UHGV virus genome: UHGV-1352483
Reading direction: 5' to 3' (one strand)
Length of the DNA stretch: 64,000 nucleotides
DNA from: a virus
A program made the position numbers and the translations under genes. The notes below the pieces were generated by a model that saw only the letters and a list, made by a program, of their open reading frames with translations, had not been told where the DNA came from and searched no databases. Of this stretch, positions 1,293 through 63,022 are shown one piece after another. Positions within the stretch are counted from its first letter, which is position 1. The number at the start of each line of letters is the position of its first letter.

Positions 1293-2741
1293 TTGCAAAG
1301 TAATAATCAATTAAAGGAGATAAATGAAATGAATAAAGTAAATCCGTCAATAAAGAAATCAACTAGATTTGATACTGAAAGATTGGCTGGTGGTTCAGGA
1401 GCTTTAGTAGCTAAACAGAATAATACAGCATTGTTGAAAAGAGCAGTCCTCGCTAATTTATTATGGGAGGATATAGCTTATATGGATGGAGAATCTGTAG
1501 CTGATGAAATCAAGAGATTGATACCATTATGCCCTGCTGAAGATGTATATGATATAGCTTTGGCTGCAAGAACAGAACAGAAGTTAAGACATACTCCATT
1601 GTTCCTTGCATCAGAAATGTGTAAATATCCTGAACATAAACTATTTGTTTCAGACTTGTTGCCTAGGATAATTACAAGAGCGGATATGCTTGCTGATTTT
1701 CTTGCTATTTATTGGAAGGAAGGTAAGAAACCTATTGCCAATCAAGCAAAGAAAGGTCTTGCGGAAGCCTTTCATAATTTCAATGAATACAAGTTTGCAA
1801 AGTATGATAGGGAATCGGAAATCAAACTGAGGGATGTTTTATTTCTTGTTCATCCTAAACCGAATAATGCAGATGAGGAAGCTCTCTTCAAGAAGATTGC
1901 AGAGAGAAATTTGAGGACTCCCGATACATGGGAGGTAGCATTGTCAGCAGAAGGGAATAAGAAAGAAACATGGGTCAGATTGATTGAAGAAGGTAAGATA
2001 GGAGGACTTGCAATGCTGAGGAATATATCAAATATGATGAAAGCAAGTGTACCGATAAAAGTTATTGAAGAGGGACTAAACAGTATTCAATCTTCAATGC
2101 TCTTACCTTTTGATTTCCTTAAAGCATTCAAACAGAATCCTCAGTTTAGAAGACAGATTGAAGATGCAATGTTAAGTTCTTATGAACACCTTCCTAAACT
2201 TCCAGGCAGAACTCTATTTATATTGGACTGTTCAGGTTCAATGACAGCAAATCTGTCATATAGGTCTCAGCTTACAAGGCTTGATGCTGCAAAAGCTATG
2301 GCTATGCTGGCTATAAACCAATGTGAGGATTATGAGCTTGTATGTACAGCAGGAAATGATAGTAGAAAAAAAGGAGCTCACACAATAATCAATTATCCCT
2401 CAAGAGGATTTGATTTGCTAAGACAGATAGATGATACAAGTCATTTGATAGGTGGAGGAGGAATATTCACAAGACAATGTTTGGAATGGTGTAAGAGTAA
2501 ATATGCAGCAGGGGAACCTTTTGAGAGAATAATAGTATTCTCTGACTCTCAGGACTGTGATTATCCTGAAAAGAGAGTTCCCAAACCATTTGGGAAATAC
2601 AATTATATCTGTGATGTTTCATCAGAACTTAAAGGTGTAGACTATAAGGGAATATGGACAGCGGAAATAAGTAGTTTCAGTGCACATTTCCTTACCTATA
2701 TTGCAGCTATGGAAGGTCTGGAAAATAGATTTGAGGAATAA
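1293..2741 (+). CDS. rsr: Ro60/TROVE-domain + vWA protein (Rsr-like)
   Basis: The C-terminal vWA has the MIDAS motif LFILDCSGSM, then AAKAMAML and RIIVFSDSQD. These parallel the human Ro60 blocks FLLAVDVSASM, AAAMCMVV and VFIVFTDNET. N-terminal segments LAMLRNISNMMKASV, LFLVHPKP and RHTPLFLASEMC parallel Ro60 LLRNLGKMTANSV, LRLSHLKP and TTKQEPMLFALAIC, compared against the remembered human sequence. Two tRNA-like RNAs lie immediately downstream. Confidence 0.75.
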   Translation: MQSNNQLKEINEMNKVNPSIKKSTRFDTERLAGGSGALVAKQNNTALLKRAVLANLLWEDIAYMDGESVADEIKRLIPLCPAEDVYDIALAARTEQKLRHTPLFLASEMCKYPEHKLFVSDLLPRIITRADMLADFLAIYWKEGKKPIANQAKKGLAEAFHNFNEYKFAKYDRESEIKLRDVLFLVHPKPNNADEEALFKKIAERNLRTPDTWEVALSAEGNKKETWVRLIEEGKIGGLAMLRNISNMMKASVPIKVIEEGLNSIQSSMLLPFDFLKAFKQNPQFRRQIEDAMLSSYEHLPKLPGRTLFILDCSGSMTANLSYRSQLTRLDAAKAMAMLAINQCEDYELVCTAGNDSRKKGAHTIINYPSRGFDLLRQIDDTSHLIGGGGIFTRQCLEWCKSKYAAGEPFERIIVFSDSQDCDYPEKRVPKPFGKYNYICDVSSELKGVDYKGIWTAEISSFSAHFLTYIAAMEGLENRFEE

Positions 2742-2841
2742 GATAAAGAAAAAGTACCATTAGTGATTATTAGGGTTACTTCTATAATAATTTGAACAGG
2801 TCAAAACAATACCCTAATGACTGTTCTATGGTACTAATATG

Positions 2842-2971
2842 AAGGGGATAGCTCAGTCTGGTAGAGCACGTATAATACTGTATCTATTGTTATCATCTTT
2901 GGATGTATTGCTGATACAGTTACTTCAGGCTTTTAACCTTGTGGTCGTAGGTTCAAATCCTACTCCCCTTC
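2842..2971 (+). ncRNA. tRNA-like RNA with a ~55-nt insertion (candidate Y RNA / YrlA-like tRNA mimic)
   Basis: Perfect 7-bp acceptor stem AAGGGGA (2842-2848) with TCCCCTT (2964-2970). Canonical positions 8-9 TA. D-arm GCTC-AGTCTGGTA-GAGC (2851-2867). T-arm GTAGG-TTCAAAT-CCTAC (2947-2963). Lys-like anticodon loop CTTTTAA on a weak stem, then a 5-nt variable loop. About 55 extra nt containing an 8-bp hairpin (ACTGTATC/GATACAGT) sit between the D-arm and the anticodon stem, so it is not a canonical tRNA. Confidence 0.6.
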
Positions 2972-2976
2972 CTATA

Positions 2977-3107
2977 GGGGCATGTTACTCTCTGGTATTT
3001 CTAATGAACCTAGGATTAATTAGGATATCAACAGGTGGGAGAGTATCTTATATCTCTGAAATGCAAATAGGAGATTAATAAGTGAGGTTCGAGTCCTCCA
3101 TGCTCCT
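2977..3107 (+). ncRNA. second tandem tRNA-like element (degenerate; candidate second Y RNA-like RNA)
   Basis: Starts 5 nt after the first element. The 7-bp acceptor-like stem GGGGCAT (2977-2983) pairs with ATGCTCC (3100-3106) with one G.U pair. T-arm TGAGG-TTCGAGT-CCTCC (3083-3099) has a canonical TTCGAGT loop. No canonical D or anticodon arm was found between them. Confidence 0.35.
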
Positions 3108-3262
3108 CAATTAAAGAAAAAAAAAAATAAGATTAGTGTATTTAACGCTTACTTCAATTAATCAGTGCAGAATATAAAAATAGCGTTATAACTGTTCTAC
3201 CTTATTATCAAGCCTACTATTCAATAAAAAGAGTAGTAGGCTTTCTTTATTTATAGGATACT

Positions 3263-3634
3263 GTGTTATTATATATGAATAATGAAGTTAAAGTAAGTCT
3301 TACTGTTGTTCTTCCAGGAAGAACTATGGTAAGCCAGCAGGTGGCTGAAAACAAACCATTAGAGAGCTATGATACCATTGTAGTTGAACTTTGGGATAAG
3401 GAAGTACAGAAAAGGGAAAGGATGTTTGTAAAAGTAAGAAAGTCTATTCCTGCCAAACAGTCTATCAATCTTTCTGTGGATGCCTATAAATATATGGTGT
3501 CTGATGAAGCCCCTTATTTTATTAAGTCAAAGGTCTGGAAAGCCATGAATATAAAGAACAGACTTGAAGCTCACTTACAGAAGATTTGTGAACAATTAAA
3601 TGGTATATCATATACCTATGAGGTGTTAAACTAA
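3263..3634 (+). CDS. hypothetical protein
   Basis: 123-aa ORF with no recognisable motifs. Followed by an A11 tract and the next start codon. Confidence 0.4.
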   Translation: MLLYMNNEVKVSLTVVLPGRTMVSQQVAENKPLESYDTIVVELWDKEVQKRERMFVKVRKSIPAKQSINLSVDAYKYMVSDEAPYFIKSKVWKAMNIKNRLEAHLQKICEQLNGISYTYEVLN

Positions 3635-4355: not shown

Positions 4356-4819
4356 AGAAATTTCTATTGATTTATAGTATCCTCATTACAGCTGTATTTG
4401 GATTCTATTTTCTGTATAAGGAACATAAGGCAGTACCGGAATCTATGGAAGTAGGAGTAGTATTAGCCCAACCTGAGTTCCTGTTTAAGGAACTGAATGA
4501 TTCCATACTTATGCTGGCTTGTGAACACTATGGCTTAAAGGAGCCTAAGATAGTAACAGCCCAAGCTATATTGGAGACAGGGTGGTTCAGGTCTAAAGTA
4601 TTCAGAGAATATAATAACCCATTTGGACTGTTCAATAGCAGGACTATGCAGTATTTCAGATTCAGGCATTGGTCTGATGCTGTTATAATGTACAGGGATA
4701 ATATACAGAAAAGACTCAAGAGGAATGAGGACTATTATAATTTCCTTAAAAGGATAGGATATGCGGAAGACGAAGATTATATCAATAAAGTAAAGGCTTT
4801 AACTGATAGTCTTAGATGA
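4352..4819 (+). CDS. membrane-anchored glucosaminidase-family peptidoglycan hydrolase
   Basis: N-terminal TM helix (LLIYSILITAVFGFYFLY). The motif AQAILETGWFRS...NNPFGLFN matches the FlgJ/mannosyl-glycoprotein endo-beta-N-acetylglucosaminidase signature AQAxLESGWG...NNLFGIK. Confidence 0.6.
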   Translation: MKKFLLIYSILITAVFGFYFLYKEHKAVPESMEVGVVLAQPEFLFKELNDSILMLACEHYGLKEPKIVTAQAILETGWFRSKVFREYNNPFGLFNSRTMQYFRFRHWSDAVIMYRDNIQKRLKRNEDYYNFLKRIGYAEDEDYINKVKALTDSLR

Positions 4820-4839: not shown

Positions 4840-5193
4840 ATGGAAATCAAGAGATTGAATATAAAATGGATTGATAAGGAAAATTTCATTTATACAGATA
4901 AAGAAGGGAAGGAGTTTTCCTACAAATGGATAGATGGAGGGAAATATTTCTCCAATAGAGGGGGACAGGCCAACGACCTTATATTTGATAGGGCTGTAGG
5001 AAATAAAGAGCAGAAGAGGCAATTCACACAGGAAGTTCTTGGGTATTGTGAAGGAGGGGATTTTCCTGTATGTTATTCCCTTGAAGATGCTACCAAATTA
5101 GTAAATGCCCTTAGAAAAGAATATCCTTGCTCAATTACTTCCTGTATAGTTGAAGACGAAGATGATGAAATAAAGCTTGATTTTTGTATTTAA
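4840..5193 (+). CDS. hypothetical protein
   Basis: In-frame with track ORF 4816..5193. The ATG at 4840 follows A9 (4827-4835) and is the more likely start. Confidence 0.4.
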   Translation: MEIKRLNIKWIDKENFIYTDKEGKEFSYKWIDGGKYFSNRGGQANDLIFDRAVGNKEQKRQFTQEVLGYCEGGDFPVCYSLEDATKLVNALRKEYPCSITSCIVEDEDDEIKLDFCI

Positions 5194-5209
5194 TAACAAA
5201 AAAAAAAAG

Positions 5210-5524
5210 ATGAAAATTATGAAAAAGTTAGAAGCATTAGCAAAAGGTTTAATCAAGGATTATCAGGTAGAGAGTAGAATGAAAAGAATCAACAGTGCAG
5301 TTGAAATGGCTAAGTTGAATCTTGAAGATGAAATCAATAAGATGAAATCAGAATATGAGGATTTGGAAGTATTACTTGCTACTGATGGCCCTATTGAAGA
5401 TACCATCCAAAGGATGTTCAAGATTACTCAGGGTATCAGAAAGAATGAGAAAGCTCTTGTTGATTTGAAGGCTGTAGTATCATCCTTGAATGAAGAAGTT
5501 GAAGCTGATAAAGTAAGCAAATGA
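5210..5524 (+). CDS. coiled-coil hypothetical protein
   Basis: The ATG at 5210 follows A11 (5198-5208), in-frame with track ORF 5177..5524. Charged heptad-like sequence. ATGA overlap with the next gene. Confidence 0.4.
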   Translation: MKIMKKLEALAKGLIKDYQVESRMKRINSAVEMAKLNLEDEINKMKSEYEDLEVLLATDGPIEDTIQRMFKITQGIRKNEKALVDLKAVVSSLNEEVEADKVSK

Positions 5525-6750
5525 CAAGGGAAGAGGTATCTAAGAAAGCAGTAAAACTAATGGAGGGCAATAAGAATGTTGCCCTTCAATGGGCTACTGG
5601 AGTAGGTAAATCGAAAGCTGCCCTTGATATAATCCAGAGTCTTAAAGATAAAGGGGAATTAAGTAAGGGAGTATTACTCTGTTATGCCGAGAAACCTCAT
5701 TTAATGAATTGGATGAATGAATTCAGGAAATGGGATAAAGATGGACTACTTGCTTTGGTAACTCCTACAACTTATGCCTCTTTAAAGAATCGTACTGGGG
5801 AAGAATACTCCCTTATAATCCTTGATGAAGGACATCATGCAGGTTCCAATCTTAGACTTGATATCCTTTCCTTGATTAAATCTGACCATGTTCTCTTATT
5901 ATCAGCCACTCTACATGATGTTATTGTACAGGACTTAGAACGTATATTCGGAAAGTTTGTTAACTACAAGATATCTTTAAAGGATGCAGTAAAAGGAGGG
6001 ATACTTCCTGAACCTAAGATATTTGTGATACCTTTGGAGTTGGATGATTATTATCCTATACATCAGGTTATACAGACAAGAGGGGCAAGTAAAAAGAGAG
6101 TTACAGTCAAGTGTACTTATGCTGAAAGGTGGAAATATCTGAAAGATAAGAAGAACTATCCCAATATTAAACTTATAATGAGCTGTACTGCCAAAGAGAA
6201 GAATAGTTTCCTTACAGAACAATCTGACTACTGGTATAAGCAGTTTGTAAGAGTGAGAAATGAGGCTATAAAGAATAAATGGCTTCAGATTGGGTCTGAA
6301 AGGAAGAGGTTCTTAGGGGAATGTAAGACAGATATATCAAAAGTTCTATTGAGGAAACTCAAGAAGAAAAGGTATATCTGTTTCTGCTCCAGTATAGACC
6401 AAGCTACAAAGTTAGGAAAAGATAATGCCATACATTCTGAGAGAAAGAATTCCCTTGAGATAATAGAGAAGTTCAATAACAAGGAGATAAATAATCTCTT
6501 TGCTGTAGGAATGCTACAGGAAGGACAGAATCTTGAAGGAATAGAGGCTGGAATAATCATCCAGCTTGATGGTCAGGAAAGAGGTTTTGTACAAAAGGCT
6601 GGAAGGGCAATGAGAGCAGAATCTCCTCTAGTATTCATTCTTTATTATAAAGGAACAAGGGATGAGGATTATCTCAACAATGTACTGTTGGATAAAGTAG
6701 ATACCCAGTATGTAAAAGAAGTTGAAGACATTTATGAATTAGAGGTATGA
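5521..6750 (+). CDS. SF2 (DEAD/DEAH/SNF2-like) helicase
   Basis: Walker A GVGKSKA, DEGH box (IILDEGHH), motif III SAT (LLSATL) and motif VI QKAGRAMR, in canonical order. Confidence 0.65.
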   Translation: MTREEVSKKAVKLMEGNKNVALQWATGVGKSKAALDIIQSLKDKGELSKGVLLCYAEKPHLMNWMNEFRKWDKDGLLALVTPTTYASLKNRTGEEYSLIILDEGHHAGSNLRLDILSLIKSDHVLLLSATLHDVIVQDLERIFGKFVNYKISLKDAVKGGILPEPKIFVIPLELDDYYPIHQVIQTRGASKKRVTVKCTYAERWKYLKDKKNYPNIKLIMSCTAKEKNSFLTEQSDYWYKQFVRVRNEAIKNKWLQIGSERKRFLGECKTDISKVLLRKLKKKRYICFCSSIDQATKLGKDNAIHSERKNSLEIIEKFNNKEINNLFAVGMLQEGQNLEGIEAGIIIQLDGQERGFVQKAGRAMRAESPLVFILYYKGTRDEDYLNNVLLDKVDTQYVKEVEDIYELEV

Positions 6751-7347: not shown

Positions 7348-8598
7348 ATGGCTGAAAAAGATAGCTTTGATAGGGCTCTTGAGAAGTTAAAGGAAAGAAG
7401 AAAGAGGATACTTGAAGGTAAGATTAACTGTATTCCATTATCCTTTTCAAGGCTTAGAGCATGGCTTCCTGGTATAGAGAAGAAAAGATATAATATCATA
7501 ACTGCCAATCAGAAGGTAGGAAAGAGTAAACTAGCAGATTACATATTGGTATATGAGCCTTTCTTCTATGTATTGGAACATCCTGAGCAAGTAAGATTGA
7601 ATATACTTTATTTCACTCTTGAAATGGGCAAGGAAGAGAAGTTCTATGAGTTTCTGTGTCACTTGTTATTCAGATTGGATAATATAAGGATATCCCCCAC
7701 AGACTTAAAGAGTACATCTGCTGACAGACCTGTTCCTGAGAATGTTATAGAACTGCTTGAATCCGAGAAATATCAGAGATATATTGACAAGTTCAAGGAA
7801 ACTGTTATCTATATAGACCATGAAAGGAATCCTACAGGAATTCAGAAGTATATATGGAATTATATGCTTGAAAGAGGAAAATTCCATTATAAAACCAGTA
7901 AGAGAAAGAATGCTGACACAGGTATAGTGGAAGATACTCAGGTCATAGATTACTATGAGCCCGATGACCCTGAAGGATATGTACTGACAATATTAGATAA
8001 TTACTCGAATCTTTCAAGTGAGAATGGACTGAATAAAATGCAGACCATTGAAAAAATGAGTAAGTATGCTATTCAGTTAAGGGATATTTTTGAACTTAAT
8101 TTTACTGCTATCCAACATCAGGCTCAGGCTCAGGAAGGAATCGAGAATCAAAAGCTGAACAAGATGATGCCTTCTTCTGATGGTCTCGCAGATTGTAAGA
8201 CAACGACAAGAGATGCTAATTTAGTATTAGGGTTATATAGTCCTTATAAATATGGTTTAAGAGAGTATGAGGGATATGATATTACCCAGTTCAAGAACAA
8301 TATAAGATTTATGCAGGTTATTGAGGACAGGGATAACGGAGCAGGAGGACAAATATGTCCTTTATTCTTCGATGGAGCTGTAAGCGTTTACAGGGAATTA
8401 CCTCTCCCTAATGATAAGAATGCTTTAACTGAGTATGTAACTTATGCCAACAGTATTAGTAGAAAGAGGAGCAGTCCTACATTCTTTACTGTAGGAAGTA
8501 AGGGTAAATCTAATTCTAATTGTAAAGGCTTGCTTAAATGGATTAAATGCACTATCTTTGCAGGATTTAAAATAAATAAAAAGAGAAAGGAAAAGTAA
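7348..8598 (+). CDS. DnaB/T7 gp4-like replicative helicase (RecA-fold ATPase)
   Basis: Walker A ANQKVGKSKLA, H2-like hydrophobic-Asp block TILDNYSNL and Q-containing H3-like AIQHQAQ. Sits beside the primase. Size is consistent with the family. Confidence 0.5.
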   Translation: MAEKDSFDRALEKLKERRKRILEGKINCIPLSFSRLRAWLPGIEKKRYNIITANQKVGKSKLADYILVYEPFFYVLEHPEQVRLNILYFTLEMGKEEKFYEFLCHLLFRLDNIRISPTDLKSTSADRPVPENVIELLESEKYQRYIDKFKETVIYIDHERNPTGIQKYIWNYMLERGKFHYKTSKRKNADTGIVEDTQVIDYYEPDDPEGYVLTILDNYSNLSSENGLNKMQTIEKMSKYAIQLRDIFELNFTAIQHQAQAQEGIENQKLNKMMPSSDGLADCKTTTRDANLVLGLYSPYKYGLREYEGYDITQFKNNIRFMQVIEDRDNGAGGQICPLFFDGAVSVYRELPLPNDKNALTEYVTYANSISRKRSSPTFFTVGSKGKSNSNCKGLLKWIKCTIFAGFKINKKRKEK

Positions 8599-61507: not shown

Positions 61508-63022
61508 TTAAGCTGCAAGAACAGCTGGTATAATCGACATTGTTCTTGTTGGGTCTAAGACACAAATACCAAGAGTTGCCATTCTATGGATAACAGCAGA
61601 ATCTTCATCGAAGGACATATAAGGATTACCCTTCTGCCCAGTGAACGGATTCCTAAGTCCCCATTGATAACCTCTGTATTCATTATCTCCCTTAATTTTA
61701 CATTTGAAGATATTCGGTTGGTCCATAGTACCAATGTACATGATATCATATCTGTAAGACATAGCTACACCTCCATTAGGATGCATAATCTTGTTTCTTA
61801 CTGGGTCGTCATAGAATGGGTCAACATCCACTTTAACTCTTACACCATTAGGTGCTTTAAACTCTACAAACTGATAACCAGCAGAAAGAGCATTTGAGTG
61901 TAACTTGGATTGAGTCTTTTCTACAACTCCAAGAGAACTATTATCAAGAACGAACTGAGTCCAGCCTGATACTACATCAAGAACAGCTTTATGGAATTGA
62001 ATAGCTCCCATTTCACCTGTCTTAAGTAAGAAGTATCTGTCACCAAAATCTAACTTAGCAGCAGAAAGTTGATACAATGCATCTTCAATCAATTTCAAAG
62101 AGAACTTATTGTAGTACATAGTATTGGATACTTCCATTTGTTCAAATAAACCCGCACCAGTCTTAATTACATTACCTGATTTACCAAAGTTCATGTATTC
62201 ACCATTAGCATTCCTGTTGGAAGTACCAAAGGCCATTACATTGTTCTTATATTCTGAGAATTGAGCTTCAACTTCAAAGTCTACATTGTGCATCCACATG
62301 GTAGCTACTGACTTAACAAGTTTACCACTTTCAGTTGGTTTCGTAATAGGAACACCAACAGCAAGTTTCTTATTAAGCATACTACCTGTAACCTTATGCT
62401 GAATTCTAACTACAGACCATTCATTCCTCATAGAAACTGGAGAAGTAAATCTTACATCACCAACTTTCCTTGAAAGTTCTTTTTCTACAGGAGCAAAGTC
62501 AATAGAGAATCTCTCTCCTCTTAACAGTCTTTCAGCAGGACAGCCAGTAGTATTACCACCCATCAATTCTACTTTATAAACTGCATTGGTTCCTTCCATT
62601 CTAGGGTCTCCTAAGATTCTGAAAGGATATACCTGATTCAAGTGACCTACAATAACTTCACCGTCTGCAAACCAATCTTCTCCAAATACAAGATAGAATG
62701 GAGCAGTACCTACACCAACATTGCCTGATGCTTCTGTAACTACAGTTCCGTTTTCGTCTCTGGCTTCAACAAGAGGAATATTCCTTCTTGAGCTGCCGAT
62801 TACATCCCAATAATATTCATTATCATCCTCAAATTCTCTTGTAGGGAATTGATTCAGGAATGTATCTAATGTTTTTCCTCTATAAAAAGCCAGCAACTGT
62901 ACCATAAGGTTTGTAGCCTTCTGGGGAGCAAGCTGGAAAATAGAGCCTAAGTGATTCTCTTTGGTCAGACCCTTCCAGTGTTGGAAGCCTACCATTTGAA
63001 ATTTACCTAATTTACCTGCCAT
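61508..63022 (-). CDS. candidate major capsid protein
   Basis: 504 aa. Position after a coiled-coil scaffold-like gene, a dedicated terminator and a size typical of crAss-like major capsid proteins. No motif-level confirmation possible by eye. Confidence 0.35.
   Translation of the reverse strand: MAGKLGKFQMVGFQHWKGLTKENHLGSIFQLAPQKATNLMVQLLAFYRGKTLDTFLNQFPTREFEDDNEYYWDVIGSSRRNIPLVEARDENGTVVTEASGNVGVGTAPFYLVFGEDWFADGEVIVGHLNQVYPFRILGDPRMEGTNAVYKVELMGGNTTGCPAERLLRGERFSIDFAPVEKELSRKVGDVRFTSPVSMRNEWSVVRIQHKVTGSMLNKKLAVGVPITKPTESGKLVKSVATMWMHNVDFEVEAQFSEYKNNVMAFGTSNRNANGEYMNFGKSGNVIKTGAGLFEQMEVSNTMYYNKFSLKLIEDALYQLSAAKLDFGDRYFLLKTGEMGAIQFHKAVLDVVSGWTQFVLDNSSLGVVEKTQSKLHSNALSAGYQFVEFKAPNGVRVKVDVDPFYDDPVRNKIMHPNGGVAMSYRYDIMYIGTMDQPNIFKCKIKGDNEYRGYQWGLRNPFTGQKGNPYMSFDEDSAVIHRMATLGICVLDPTRTMSIIPAVLAA

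Follow-up and report, generated by a model that had tools for sequence, protein, structure and literature searches.

The genome of the virus UHGV-1352483, analyzed here over 64,000 nucleotides (nt; this entire stretch is referred to as the window), carries a gene for what homology indicates to be a full-length Ro60-type protein with TROVE and vWA domains, followed by four small RNA elements (e0, e1, e2 and e3). We consider this locus, with a probability of roughly 75%, to be a phage Ro60-Y RNA-type ribonucleoprotein cassette. This reading is supported by the homology of the protein, by the conservation of the downstream RNAs and by the strand-specific linkage between RNAs and gene (73/80 versus 3/80 loci, see below). 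An earlier, sequence-only reading had proposed a Ro60 ortholog with two tandem tRNA-like RNAs as a candidate Ro60-Y RNA module of a crAss-like phage, and had considered it unexpected. The idea is right in substance, with the system being both more elaborate (four RNAs, a portable stem, several topologies) and less surprising. Those refuting conditions named for it that can be checked by computation all turned out in its favor. The surprise was overstated because the homologous gene of phage crAss001 is already annotated as TROVE and has been described both as early and as a ‘possible ribonucleoprotein component’ (PMC8375218; review PMC10136315), and the pairing of Ro60 with Y RNAs in phages dates back in the literature to 2014 (PMC4201824).

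The RNAs are tied together by a stem, further called the module, that is common to e0, e1 and e3. It consists of an RGYG-N(4-9)-AGAGU-UACUUC strand opposed to an ACUCU-N(3-9)-UGUUCY strand, with GUUACUUC and UGUUCY as its signature. Covariation is seen in helix P1, in a 4-bp core with an R-Y/C-G switch and in helix P2. The closed form of the module resides in an insertion in e1, which comparison with 59 related viral contigs revealed as the conserved part. Its basal helix P1 covaries around the consensus ACUCU/AGAGU (ACUGUAUC/GAUACAGU in the window). Inside P1, UUCY is paired with RGUG, including the R-Y switch; a variable, capped P2 stands above, and a near-invariant UACUUC tail lies directly 3' of P1. 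We evaluated this structure using a MAFFT alignment of 21 hairpins, a hand-drawn structure, 500 shuffles and controls with slid pairing partners. The closed modules were 89% paired (73.7% after shuffling) and had a covariation score of 0.413 versus 0.160, a value reached in 0 of 500 shuffles. Sliding the partners by 1–3 columns reduced pairing to 28–48%.

Just past the stop codon of the gene the module motifs appear in reverse order: a P2 strand, UAGUG, AGGGU, UACUUC, a loop, ACCCU, UGUUCU and the other P2 strand. This open form is the same structure as the e1 module, with the RNA ends placed in P2 and a short loop replacing the tRNA body. In e0, P1 is compensatory relative to the consensus AGAGT/ACTCT. 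The open-form model R2 was built from 29 nonredundant modules of unrelated contigs, none of them from the window. These modules were 82.5% paired (60.5% when shuffled) with a covariation score of 0.615 versus 0.239 (0/500). An alternative pairing of RGYG with the bases just 5' of UGUUCY, suggested by the YrlA alignment of locus L319, failed by eye in the crAss modules and in other L319 copies. The RG/CY pairing next to P2 was kept, and pair 11-72 covaries (GC in 12 sequences, AU in 10). A likeness to human Y1 RNA was set aside as coincidence: hY1 has GUAGUGAGUUAUCUC and UUGUUCUACUCU, but their order and pairing differ.

Window scans with the module models covered the whole 64 kb on both strands (R2 with filters off). 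R2 identified e0 (45.8 bits, E = 1.7e-9) and e3 (34.2 bits, E = 2e-6) and nothing further. The closed-form model R3, rebuilt without window sequences, produced a sole significant match, the e1 hairpin (31.2 bits, E = 2.8e-4); model R1 assigned the e1 module 41.8 bits. A model match at 62442–62510 on the minus strand was dismissed as chance, given its low score (12.5–14.5 bits) and its location in apparent coding sequence.

The genomic association of the stem with this clade of TROVE proteins is very strong. A scan of 59 crAss-family loci at E ≤ 0.01 yielded 82 matches to R2 and 134 to R3. Every one of the 216 shares the strand of the TROVE gene, and with few exceptions they lie within the kilobase 3' of it, typically three to five per locus. 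The module follows the gene in about 55 of the 59 relatives, so that homologous phages conserve the RNAs along with the protein. In L035, an inserted gene displaces the module region beyond the examined DNA. The association extends to a sample selected by protein: 80 viral contigs from soil, water and other metagenomes, none of them crAss, with TROVE proteins 37–54% identical (tblastn). Here a relaxed one-strand pattern (RGYG, 3–10 nt, NNN, G[UA]UACUU[CU]) was found on the TROVE strand in 73 loci and on the opposite strand in three, nearly always no more than ~1 kb up- or downstream of the gene and most often with several copies per locus.

A strict-motif scan of viral contigs retrieved crAss contigs as well as jumbo-phage and environmental contigs, in which structured copies often lie beside a divergent TROVE gene. 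The corresponding scan of bacterial genomes served as a negative control only, since most of its matches are chance occurrences in coding sequence (~1,700 estimated in 596 Gb). Among the matches listed, TROVE is present in 4 of 120 bacterial loci, and none of the four is chance-like: L246 and L252 have a fully paired module, in L200 the gene is directly downstream, and L222 is a crAss-type contig. The latter (CAKUZO010000077.1, 7.4 kb), assigned to a ‘Candidatus Melainabacteria’ metagenome-assembled genome, contains a crAss-type TROVE gene (737 bits) and modules, and is probably a phage contig binned into a bacterial assembly.

The protein itself scores 58 bits for the Pfam TROVE family (PF05731), whose cut-off is 23 bits (E = 1.3e-15); its Pfam vWA matches are weak. 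In a single-sequence phmmer search against PDB, residues 52–425 matched phiRo60 of Thermus phage phiLo (9KOP/9L5Y, crystal and cryo-EM structures) with E = 4e-18. We also used a profile of 14 sequences, comprising the window protein and 13 divergent homologs from phage contigs (20–36% identical). The profile matched phiRo60 9KOP (4e-74, positions 9–470), Xenopus Ro60 1YVP (2.8e-31, profile 11–463 against chain 14–532), human RO60 9NEN (7e-29) and Deinococcus radiodurans Rsr 2NVO (2.3e-24). Across the 14 homologs, the DxSxS residues of the MIDAS (metal ion-dependent adhesion site; D312, S314 and S316) are invariant, as are D418 and Q420 of the SDxQ block. Most positions of the ALLRNLxN block (A240, L242, R243, N244, L245, N247) are invariant or nearly so, and the HPKP block is conserved in the alignment consensus only. 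In the window the MIDAS sequence reads LDCSGSM ... FSDSQD, with D418 as the distal acidic residue.

Since the profile matches Ro60 structures over nearly the whole length and the MIDAS is invariant, sequence comparison identifies the product as a full-length Ro60-type TROVE+vWA protein, for which a closed ring fold with a central cavity would be expected. The suggestion that the 482-residue protein is a Ro60 ortholog is thus borne out, and its homology is not confined to a vWA domain. Moreover, three of the four blocks that had been aligned by eye with human Ro60 coincide with invariant or near-invariant columns, the fourth being HPKP. The 482-residue length refers to the TTG start of the open reading frame (ORF). 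Because homologs align only from residue 11–14 onward and an in-frame ATG is present there (position 1329), the true start is probably this ATG, giving a product of 470 residues.

Table 1. Coordinates of the Ro60-type gene, the four RNA elements and the terminator-like hairpin in the window
Feature	Position	Strand	Sequence or description	Basis
Ro60/TROVE + vWA gene	1293–2741	+	TTG start 1293; 482 residues; stop TAA 2739–2741	ORF listing
e0, free-standing module RNA	2752–2837	+	86 nt; short apical loop (YrlB-like)	Window-free model R2
e0 P2	2753–2760 / 2828–2835		AGTACCAT / ATGGTACT	
e0 TAGTG	2761–2765		TAGTG	
e0 P1	2772–2776 / 2811–2815		AGGGT / ACCCT	
e0 tail	2777–2782		TACTTC	
e0 TGTTCT	2822–2827		TGTTCT	
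e1, tRNA-like RNA	2842–2971	+	~130 nt; open acceptor stem	Fold, homologs
e1 acceptor	2842–2848 / 2964–2970		AAGGGGA / TCCCCTT, 7 bp	
e1 D arm	2851–2867		Standard	
e1 split anticodon stem	2869–2870 + 2927–2929 / 2937–2941		CG + AGG / CCTTG; 7-nt loop CTTTTAA	
e1 T arm	2947–2963		Standard: GTAGG-TTCAAAT-CCTAC	
Module hairpin inserted in e1	2875–2926	+	At tRNA position 28/29	Window-free model R3
e1 module P1	2877–2884 / 2913–2920		ACTGTATC / GATACAGT	
e1 module core	2887–2893 / 2906–2910		TTGTTAT / TATTG	
e1 module P2, capped	2894–2905			
e1 module tail	2921–2926		TACTTC	
e2, second tRNA-like RNA	2977–3107	+	~130 nt; without D arm	Fold; position and architecture as in e2-type RNAs of relatives
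e2 acceptor	within 2977–2984 / 3099–3106		GGGGCAT / ATGCTCC, 8 bp	
e2 degenerate module P1	2986–2992 / 3039–3045		TACTCTC / GAGAGTA	
e2 degenerate module, other parts	2996–3002; 3034–3038; 3046–3051		TATTTCT; GGTGG; tail TCTTAT	
e2 hairpin	3051–3075		11-nt ‘anticodon’ loop	
e2 T arm	3084–3098		GAGG-TTCGAGT-CCTC	
e3, second free-standing module RNA	3125–3208	+	84 nt	Window-free model R2
e3 parts			TAGTG; P1 ACGCT / AGCGT; tail TACTTC; TGTTCT	R2 alignment
Intrinsic-terminator-like hairpin and T run	3210–3243	+	13-pair stem, 5 GC pairs; tail TCTTTATTTA	

The features of the locus are listed in Table 1. The array begins 11 nt past the stop codon of the TROVE gene. Its spacers are 4–5 nt among e0, e1 and e2, and 17 nt before e3, ahead of which a poly-A run is present at about 3117–3129. 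The terminator-like hairpin is the probable end of a TROVE-e0-e1-e2-e3 transcription unit. Both of the tandem tRNA-like RNAs described in the sequence-only reading are present, but the array holds four RNAs rather than two: e0 falls inside the region considered at that time (1293–3107) and e3 lies beyond it. The description of these two RNAs as having canonical acceptor stems and T arms but unusual middles also agrees with our analysis. Each has an acceptor and a T arm; in e1 the anticodon stem is broken up in its 5' strand by a ~52-nt insertion, and e2 has no D arm. Their folds are both cloverleaf-like, with z scores of about -2.2 to -2.4 (for e2, -39.1 kcal/mol and z = -2.41); the fold of e0 also has z = -2.41. 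Homologs of e1 were found in about 45 of 61 related loci, and an equivalent of e3 follows e2 in crAss001-type loci. An ORF of 79 residues (2839–3078, plus strand) overlaps e1 and e2. It is almost certainly spurious, since relatives keep this region as RNA structure with indels.

Searches with general RNA tools gave little. ARAGORN reported no tRNA genes over the window, and Rfam detected neither tRNA nor transfer-messenger RNA (tmRNA) there at its thresholds. The Rfam tRNA model reached 22.2 bits (threshold 29), and matched only the 3' part of e1. A canonical cloverleaf is indeed not formed by either RNA: e1 has a 7-nt loop (CUUUUAA) but also the insertion, and e2 combines the missing D arm with an 11-nt loop. 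The gathering-threshold Rfam scan of the whole 64 kb matched no family. An E-value scan of 2600–3400 returned only sub-threshold tRNA and YrlA matches and noise (miRNA, PyrG leader, PreQ1); the miRNA and PyrG leader matches were rejected as noise placed on the terminator hairpin.

Several observations weigh against regarding the locus as a Ro60-Y RNA-type cassette. First, e2 was missed by all module models, including both closed-module models. Its module is too degenerate and was read by eye (ACUCUC ... UAUUUCU ... GGUGG-GAGAGU-AUCUUA). Because no module model detects it, e2 is the weakest part of the array. Second, three AT-rich loci (L048, L049 and L052), with TROVE proteins 55–57% identical to that of the window, have no module within 3 kb on either side, and some module-bearing tRNA arrays have no TROVE gene within the DNA examined. 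Third, the search with the curated Rfam YrlA model (RF02553, gathering threshold 69 bits), which the sequence-only reading had proposed as a check, produced no member-level match: the window RNAs score 17 bits, and related phage RNAs (19–52 bits) are also below the threshold. Fourth, the window RNAs lack a strict GNCGAA motif, the crAss form of which has degenerated to UAGUG(A/U). Finally, the tRNA bodies of several relatives are so canonical that, by eye, exact removal of the module would restore a perfect cloverleaf, something for which a pure docking-site model has no need.

The last point leads to the most serious of the alternatives, which we nevertheless consider unlikely. The phage tRNA genes might be genuine, with the module intervening in them or serving their processing as an intron or a leader-trailer clamp, comparable to archaeal bulge-helix-bulge (BHB) introns and permuted tRNAs. 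The module would be excised and the exons joined, a host RtcB-type ligase being one possibility, with the TROVE protein serving as a maturation chaperone or cofactor and not as the partner of Y RNAs. The placement of the module fits such a role. It is found inside the anticodon stem at positions 26–29 (e1 and L093), inside the D loop (e2-type RNAs of L001–L004), flanking complete canonical tRNAs (tRNA-Lys/Arg in L003/L005, tRNA-Asn in L095/L127) and flanking permuted tRNA halves (L135), every one of these arrangements being shown by archaeal tRNA introns. Moreover, by eye, the dinucleotide just before the e1 insertion covaries with anticodon-stem positions 42–43 (CG/UG, CU/AG, CG/CG, GU/AC, UG/CA). 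Because of this, joining the flanks in the window, and likewise in many relatives, produces a perfect stem of 5 bp together with a 7-nt loop, U33 and R37.

However, the covariation with positions 42–43 is equally expected of an unspliced three-way junction, and much else disagrees with tRNA processing. In most TROVE-linked RNAs outside crAss the acceptor is sealed by a tetraloop such as CUUCGG, as in YrlA, and therefore could not be aminoacylated without further cuts. The ‘anticodon’ loops switch between UUU, GUG and GCU among near-identical bodies and comprise 9–11 nt in the crAss001 group (11 nt in e2 of the window), and e0 and e3 contain no tRNA cargo at all. The resemblance to non-canonical, split and permuted tRNAs of archaea and algae, where one element likewise occurs at several tRNA positions, around whole tRNAs and around permuted halves, is also incomplete. 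Upon inspection of the sequence, the junctions lack the symmetric 3-nt bulges of BHB geometry. Rfam scans of the window gave no Intron_gpI match, and no known ribozyme or intron model matched. In addition, unlike the archaeal and algal elements, the module is linked to a Ro60 gene and many of its cargoes cannot be functional tRNAs. The hosts are bacterial, and we know of no splicing endonuclease in bacteria. An excision test with ARAGORN was discarded, as about half of arbitrary cut variants were called tRNA. It is uninformative because the controls behave much alike: with cuts shifted by -25/+20 nt, 43 and 60 of 64 sequences were called, compared with 64/64.

It is doubtful that the module is more than a docking site for Ro60, namely a portable tag coupling phage tRNAs or tRNA mimics to Ro60 for maturation, whether by being excised or by clamping leader and trailer. 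Such a tag might yield functional, chargeable tRNAs with rapidly switchable anticodons, Ro60 then acting in tRNA biogenesis or in protection against host anticodon nucleases, which we deem just as doubtful. If true, a tRNA ‘intron’ system that is protein-assisted and not of the group I kind would be on record for the first time in the bacterial world, and Ro60 would be linked directly, by function, to tRNA processing.

Several further observations concern tRNAs in the related loci. The near-identical bodies with UUU, GUG or GCU loops belong to the e1 homologs of L001–L004, L007 and L026 (about 4560–4720), and have the G-1:C73 pair typical of tRNA-His. Open modules surround complete tRNAs in L003 (4420–4560), L005 (2780–2920), L095 (2194–2314) and L127 (730–850); in L003 and L005 the conserved UACUUC tail is part of the tRNA acceptor stem. 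In L128, a 228-kb phage contig, a free-standing module (5178–5252, plus strand) lies ~40 nt upstream of a group I intron match (5290–5528, plus strand, 65.6 bits), and a 147-nt ‘tRNA’ match at 8383–8529 suggests an interrupted tRNA.

Less probable still is a cis-acting role of the elements within the TROVE mRNA, for example as stabilizers of the 3' untranslated region, processing sites or attenuators that derive from decayed tRNA genes and have no specific protein partner. The location between stop codon and terminator within one transcription unit, the readiness with which phage tRNA clusters decay and the degenerate state of e2 are all compatible with this explanation. However, in most non-crAss phages the module is upstream of the TROVE gene or forms tandem arrays of up to six copies, and therefore does not fit a role in the 3' untranslated region. 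Furthermore, invariant 8–12-nt motifs and covarying helices persist across TROVE proteins that are only 37–54% identical by tblastn (20–36% in the protein alignment), which argues for a trans-acting RNA recognized in a sequence-specific manner. As for a chance adjacency of the TROVE gene and ordinary odd or pseudo-tRNAs unrelated to it, crAss-like phages do carry many tRNAs, including oversized ones with ambiguous ARAGORN calls, but this explanation is effectively refuted by the strand-controlled association in the 80 loci, by the position and strand of all 216 matches in crAss relatives and by the four bacterial TROVE loci among the matches listed, none of them chance-like.

Returning to the Ro60-Y RNA-type cassette, we infer by analogy that the phage Ro60 ring docks on the shared stem, which would correspond to the stem that Ro60 binds in YrlA and YrlB. 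In e0 and e3 this stem would be closed by the RNA ends and carry only a short loop, as in YrlB. In e1 and e2 the same stem would be capped by a loop and planted in a tRNA-shaped body, in the anticodon stem at 28/29 (e1) or in place of the D arm (e2), and the acceptor end would therefore be free. The RNAs may be co-transcribed with the TROVE gene early in infection, released from the tightly spaced array by host tRNA-processing enzymes and then bound by Ro60. The tRNA-like bodies could represent the effector end, recruiting or decoying host proteins that handle tRNA or other RNA. Candidates are PNPase-type exonucleases, as in bacterial and phiLo complexes, and tRNA-targeting defense nucleases, the net effect being RNA remodeling or anti-defense. 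Based on the analogy with the Rsr-Y RNA-PNPase complexes of Deinococcus and Salmonella and with the phiRo60-Yrl-PNPase complex of phiLo (PMC12135203), the ribonucleoprotein probably redirects or blocks a host activity that degrades RNA or recognizes tRNA early in infection. An anti-defense role is plausible by analogy, because the Ro60-like protein of coliphage Bas63, encoded just upstream of tRNA genes, is reported to counter the Ppl defense (PMC11482910). Our confidence in any specific downstream function is much lower than in the cassette itself.

In the human gut, few viruses are more abundant than crAss-like phages. A major autoantigen of lupus and Sjogren syndrome is Ro60, and Ro60 orthologs of commensals have been proposed as triggers of autoimmunity in both diseases. 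In the literature searched, neither RNA partners in crAss-like phages nor the GUUACUUC/UGUUCY stem nor tRNA-embedded forms without permutation were described. Concrete candidate RNA partners for the crAss Ro60 gene provide an experimental handle, as crAss001 can be cultivated and the RNAs (~85 and 130 nt) have defined motifs. A large branch of phage Y RNAs goes undetected by the curated YrlA model and is found by the GUUACUUC/UGUUCY-stem model beside most of the sampled viral TROVE genes. Since the same stem is placed on tRNA bodies in at least four topologies, these loci amount to natural permutation experiments on tRNA mimicry in Ro60 ribonucleoproteins. Together with the Bas63 report (PMC11482910), they point to an anti-defense or RNA-remodeling role early in infection.

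Region 1293–3300 of the window is ~70% identical at the DNA level to crAss001, PhiCrAssBcn isolates and the uncultured phages cr106_1 and cr112_1; crAss001 and cr106_1 are classified as Steigviridae, Asinivirinae. The ortholog of the window gene in crAss001 (Steigviridae, Kehishuvirus) is Gp96, which is 69% identical in amino acid sequence, has the same genome neighborhood and is annotated as ‘TROVE domain-containing protein / RNA-binding protein’. In L060 and L013 it is followed by the same RNA array; the e0–e3 homologs of crAss001 lie on the complementary strand of NC_049977 at about 95,960–96,870. The ~900 nt downstream of Gp96 have no annotation in the crAss001 record; in the cr106_1 record ~520 nt downstream of the TROVE gene are unannotated. 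Compared with the window, the ‘anticodon’ loop of e1 in crAss001 comprises 9 nt, and the substitute for the D arm in e2 is a different one. Many crAss relatives (L001, L015, L016, L019, L023, L032, L038 and others) encode a phage tmRNA (tag DNTYRVAA) and tRNA-Arg genes 1–3 kb upstream of TROVE. Contig L313, which has a TROVE gene and an array of ~30 tRNAs, contains a type II hammerhead ribozyme at 186–254 on the minus strand, detected at the Rfam threshold (42.5 bits).

Among phages, a Ro60 gene with neighboring Y RNAs is known in mycobacteriophages, CcrColossus, phage G and phiLo. The closest solved structure to the window protein is phiRo60 of phiLo, a protein that binds two adjacent small RNAs, Yrl1 and Yrl2, and forms complexes with the host PNPase (9KOP, 9L5Y; PMC12135203). 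The KK of the window ‘AKKGLAE’ aligns with the KK of phiRo60 ‘LKKAIAE’, with numbering offset from the published RNA contacts K141/K142. The phiLo RNAs differ from those of the window: they are defined by a CGAA motif and form stem-bulge-stem hairpins upstream of the gene, and no tRNA-like domain has been described for them (PMC12135203). No GUUACUUC/UGUUCY module was seen in the 480 nt upstream of the phiRo60 gene (L383, 1980–2460), and judging from this sequence phiLo may use a different RNA solution.

PMC12135203 cites a 2014 report of Y RNA-like RNAs in phages, among them Caulobacter phage CcrColossus. The CcrColossus RNAs, located upstream of the TROVE gene, have the same motifs as the module (GGUGGCGUAG ... 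(G/U)(A/U)UACUUC ... UGUUCCCC) and align full length to Rfam YrlA at 42.3, 30.5 and 29.9 bits. Full-length YrlA alignments were likewise obtained for Xanthomonas phage MET23-P3 (52.3 and 37.5 bits) and L319 (33.6 bits). In the protein-selected loci the module is usually of the open form, its cargo being a short loop in 49 cases and a tRNA-like domain in 32. The latter comprises an anticodon-like hairpin, a T arm, a D arm and an acceptor sealed by a small loop, often a tetraloop. YrlA combines T, AS, D and V arms with RNA termini that lie in the stem bound by Ro60 (PMC4201824), and the topology of the non-crAss TROVE-linked phage RNAs (e.g. L319, L384) is identical to it. The proposed contact of Rsr is GNCGAAN0-1G in the 5' strand of the stem (PMC4201824). 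The RGYG element, which in many relatives reads GGCGAAG, GGUGAAG or GGCGUAG, i.e. RGYG(A/U)AG, resembles this motif in sequence. At the equivalent place, the window has UAGUGAU, UAUUGCU, GGUGGGA and UAGUGUA.

Like YrlA and YrlB, the window RNAs are encoded no farther than ~1 kb from a Ro60/TROVE gene, the usual number per locus being at least two. They include one class with a tRNA-like domain (T and D arms, acceptor), which adjoins a conserved irregular stem, and one class without it, although of the tRNA-like members e1 has both T and D arms and e2 the T arm only. They also conform to the broad size range (80–130 nt) and the stem and internal-loop architecture of Y RNAs, with 86 nt in e0, 84 nt in e3 and about 130 nt in e1 and e2. 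Unlike YrlA, e1 and e2 show no permutation. Their acceptor end is open, an anticodon-like arm is kept, and the putative Ro60 stem forms a capped hairpin, which is inserted at 28/29 in e1 and takes the D-arm position in e2. The signature motifs of this branch (GUUACUUC and UGUUCY) differ as well. Because the acceptor stem is open and the score is below the threshold, we consider the window RNAs a variant of YrlA rather than a member of the family. By sequence they appear to belong to a broad, phage-centered branch of the YrlA/YrlB kind that the curated model misses, e0 and e3 corresponding, by the same comparison, to the tRNA-less (YrlB-like) class. The e1 and e2 RNAs would then be circular permutations of the tRNA-like (YrlA) class seen beside most other phage TROVE genes. 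This is supported by the permuted RNAs of L319, in which the stem is attached at the same point as in e1, anticodon stem 28/29.

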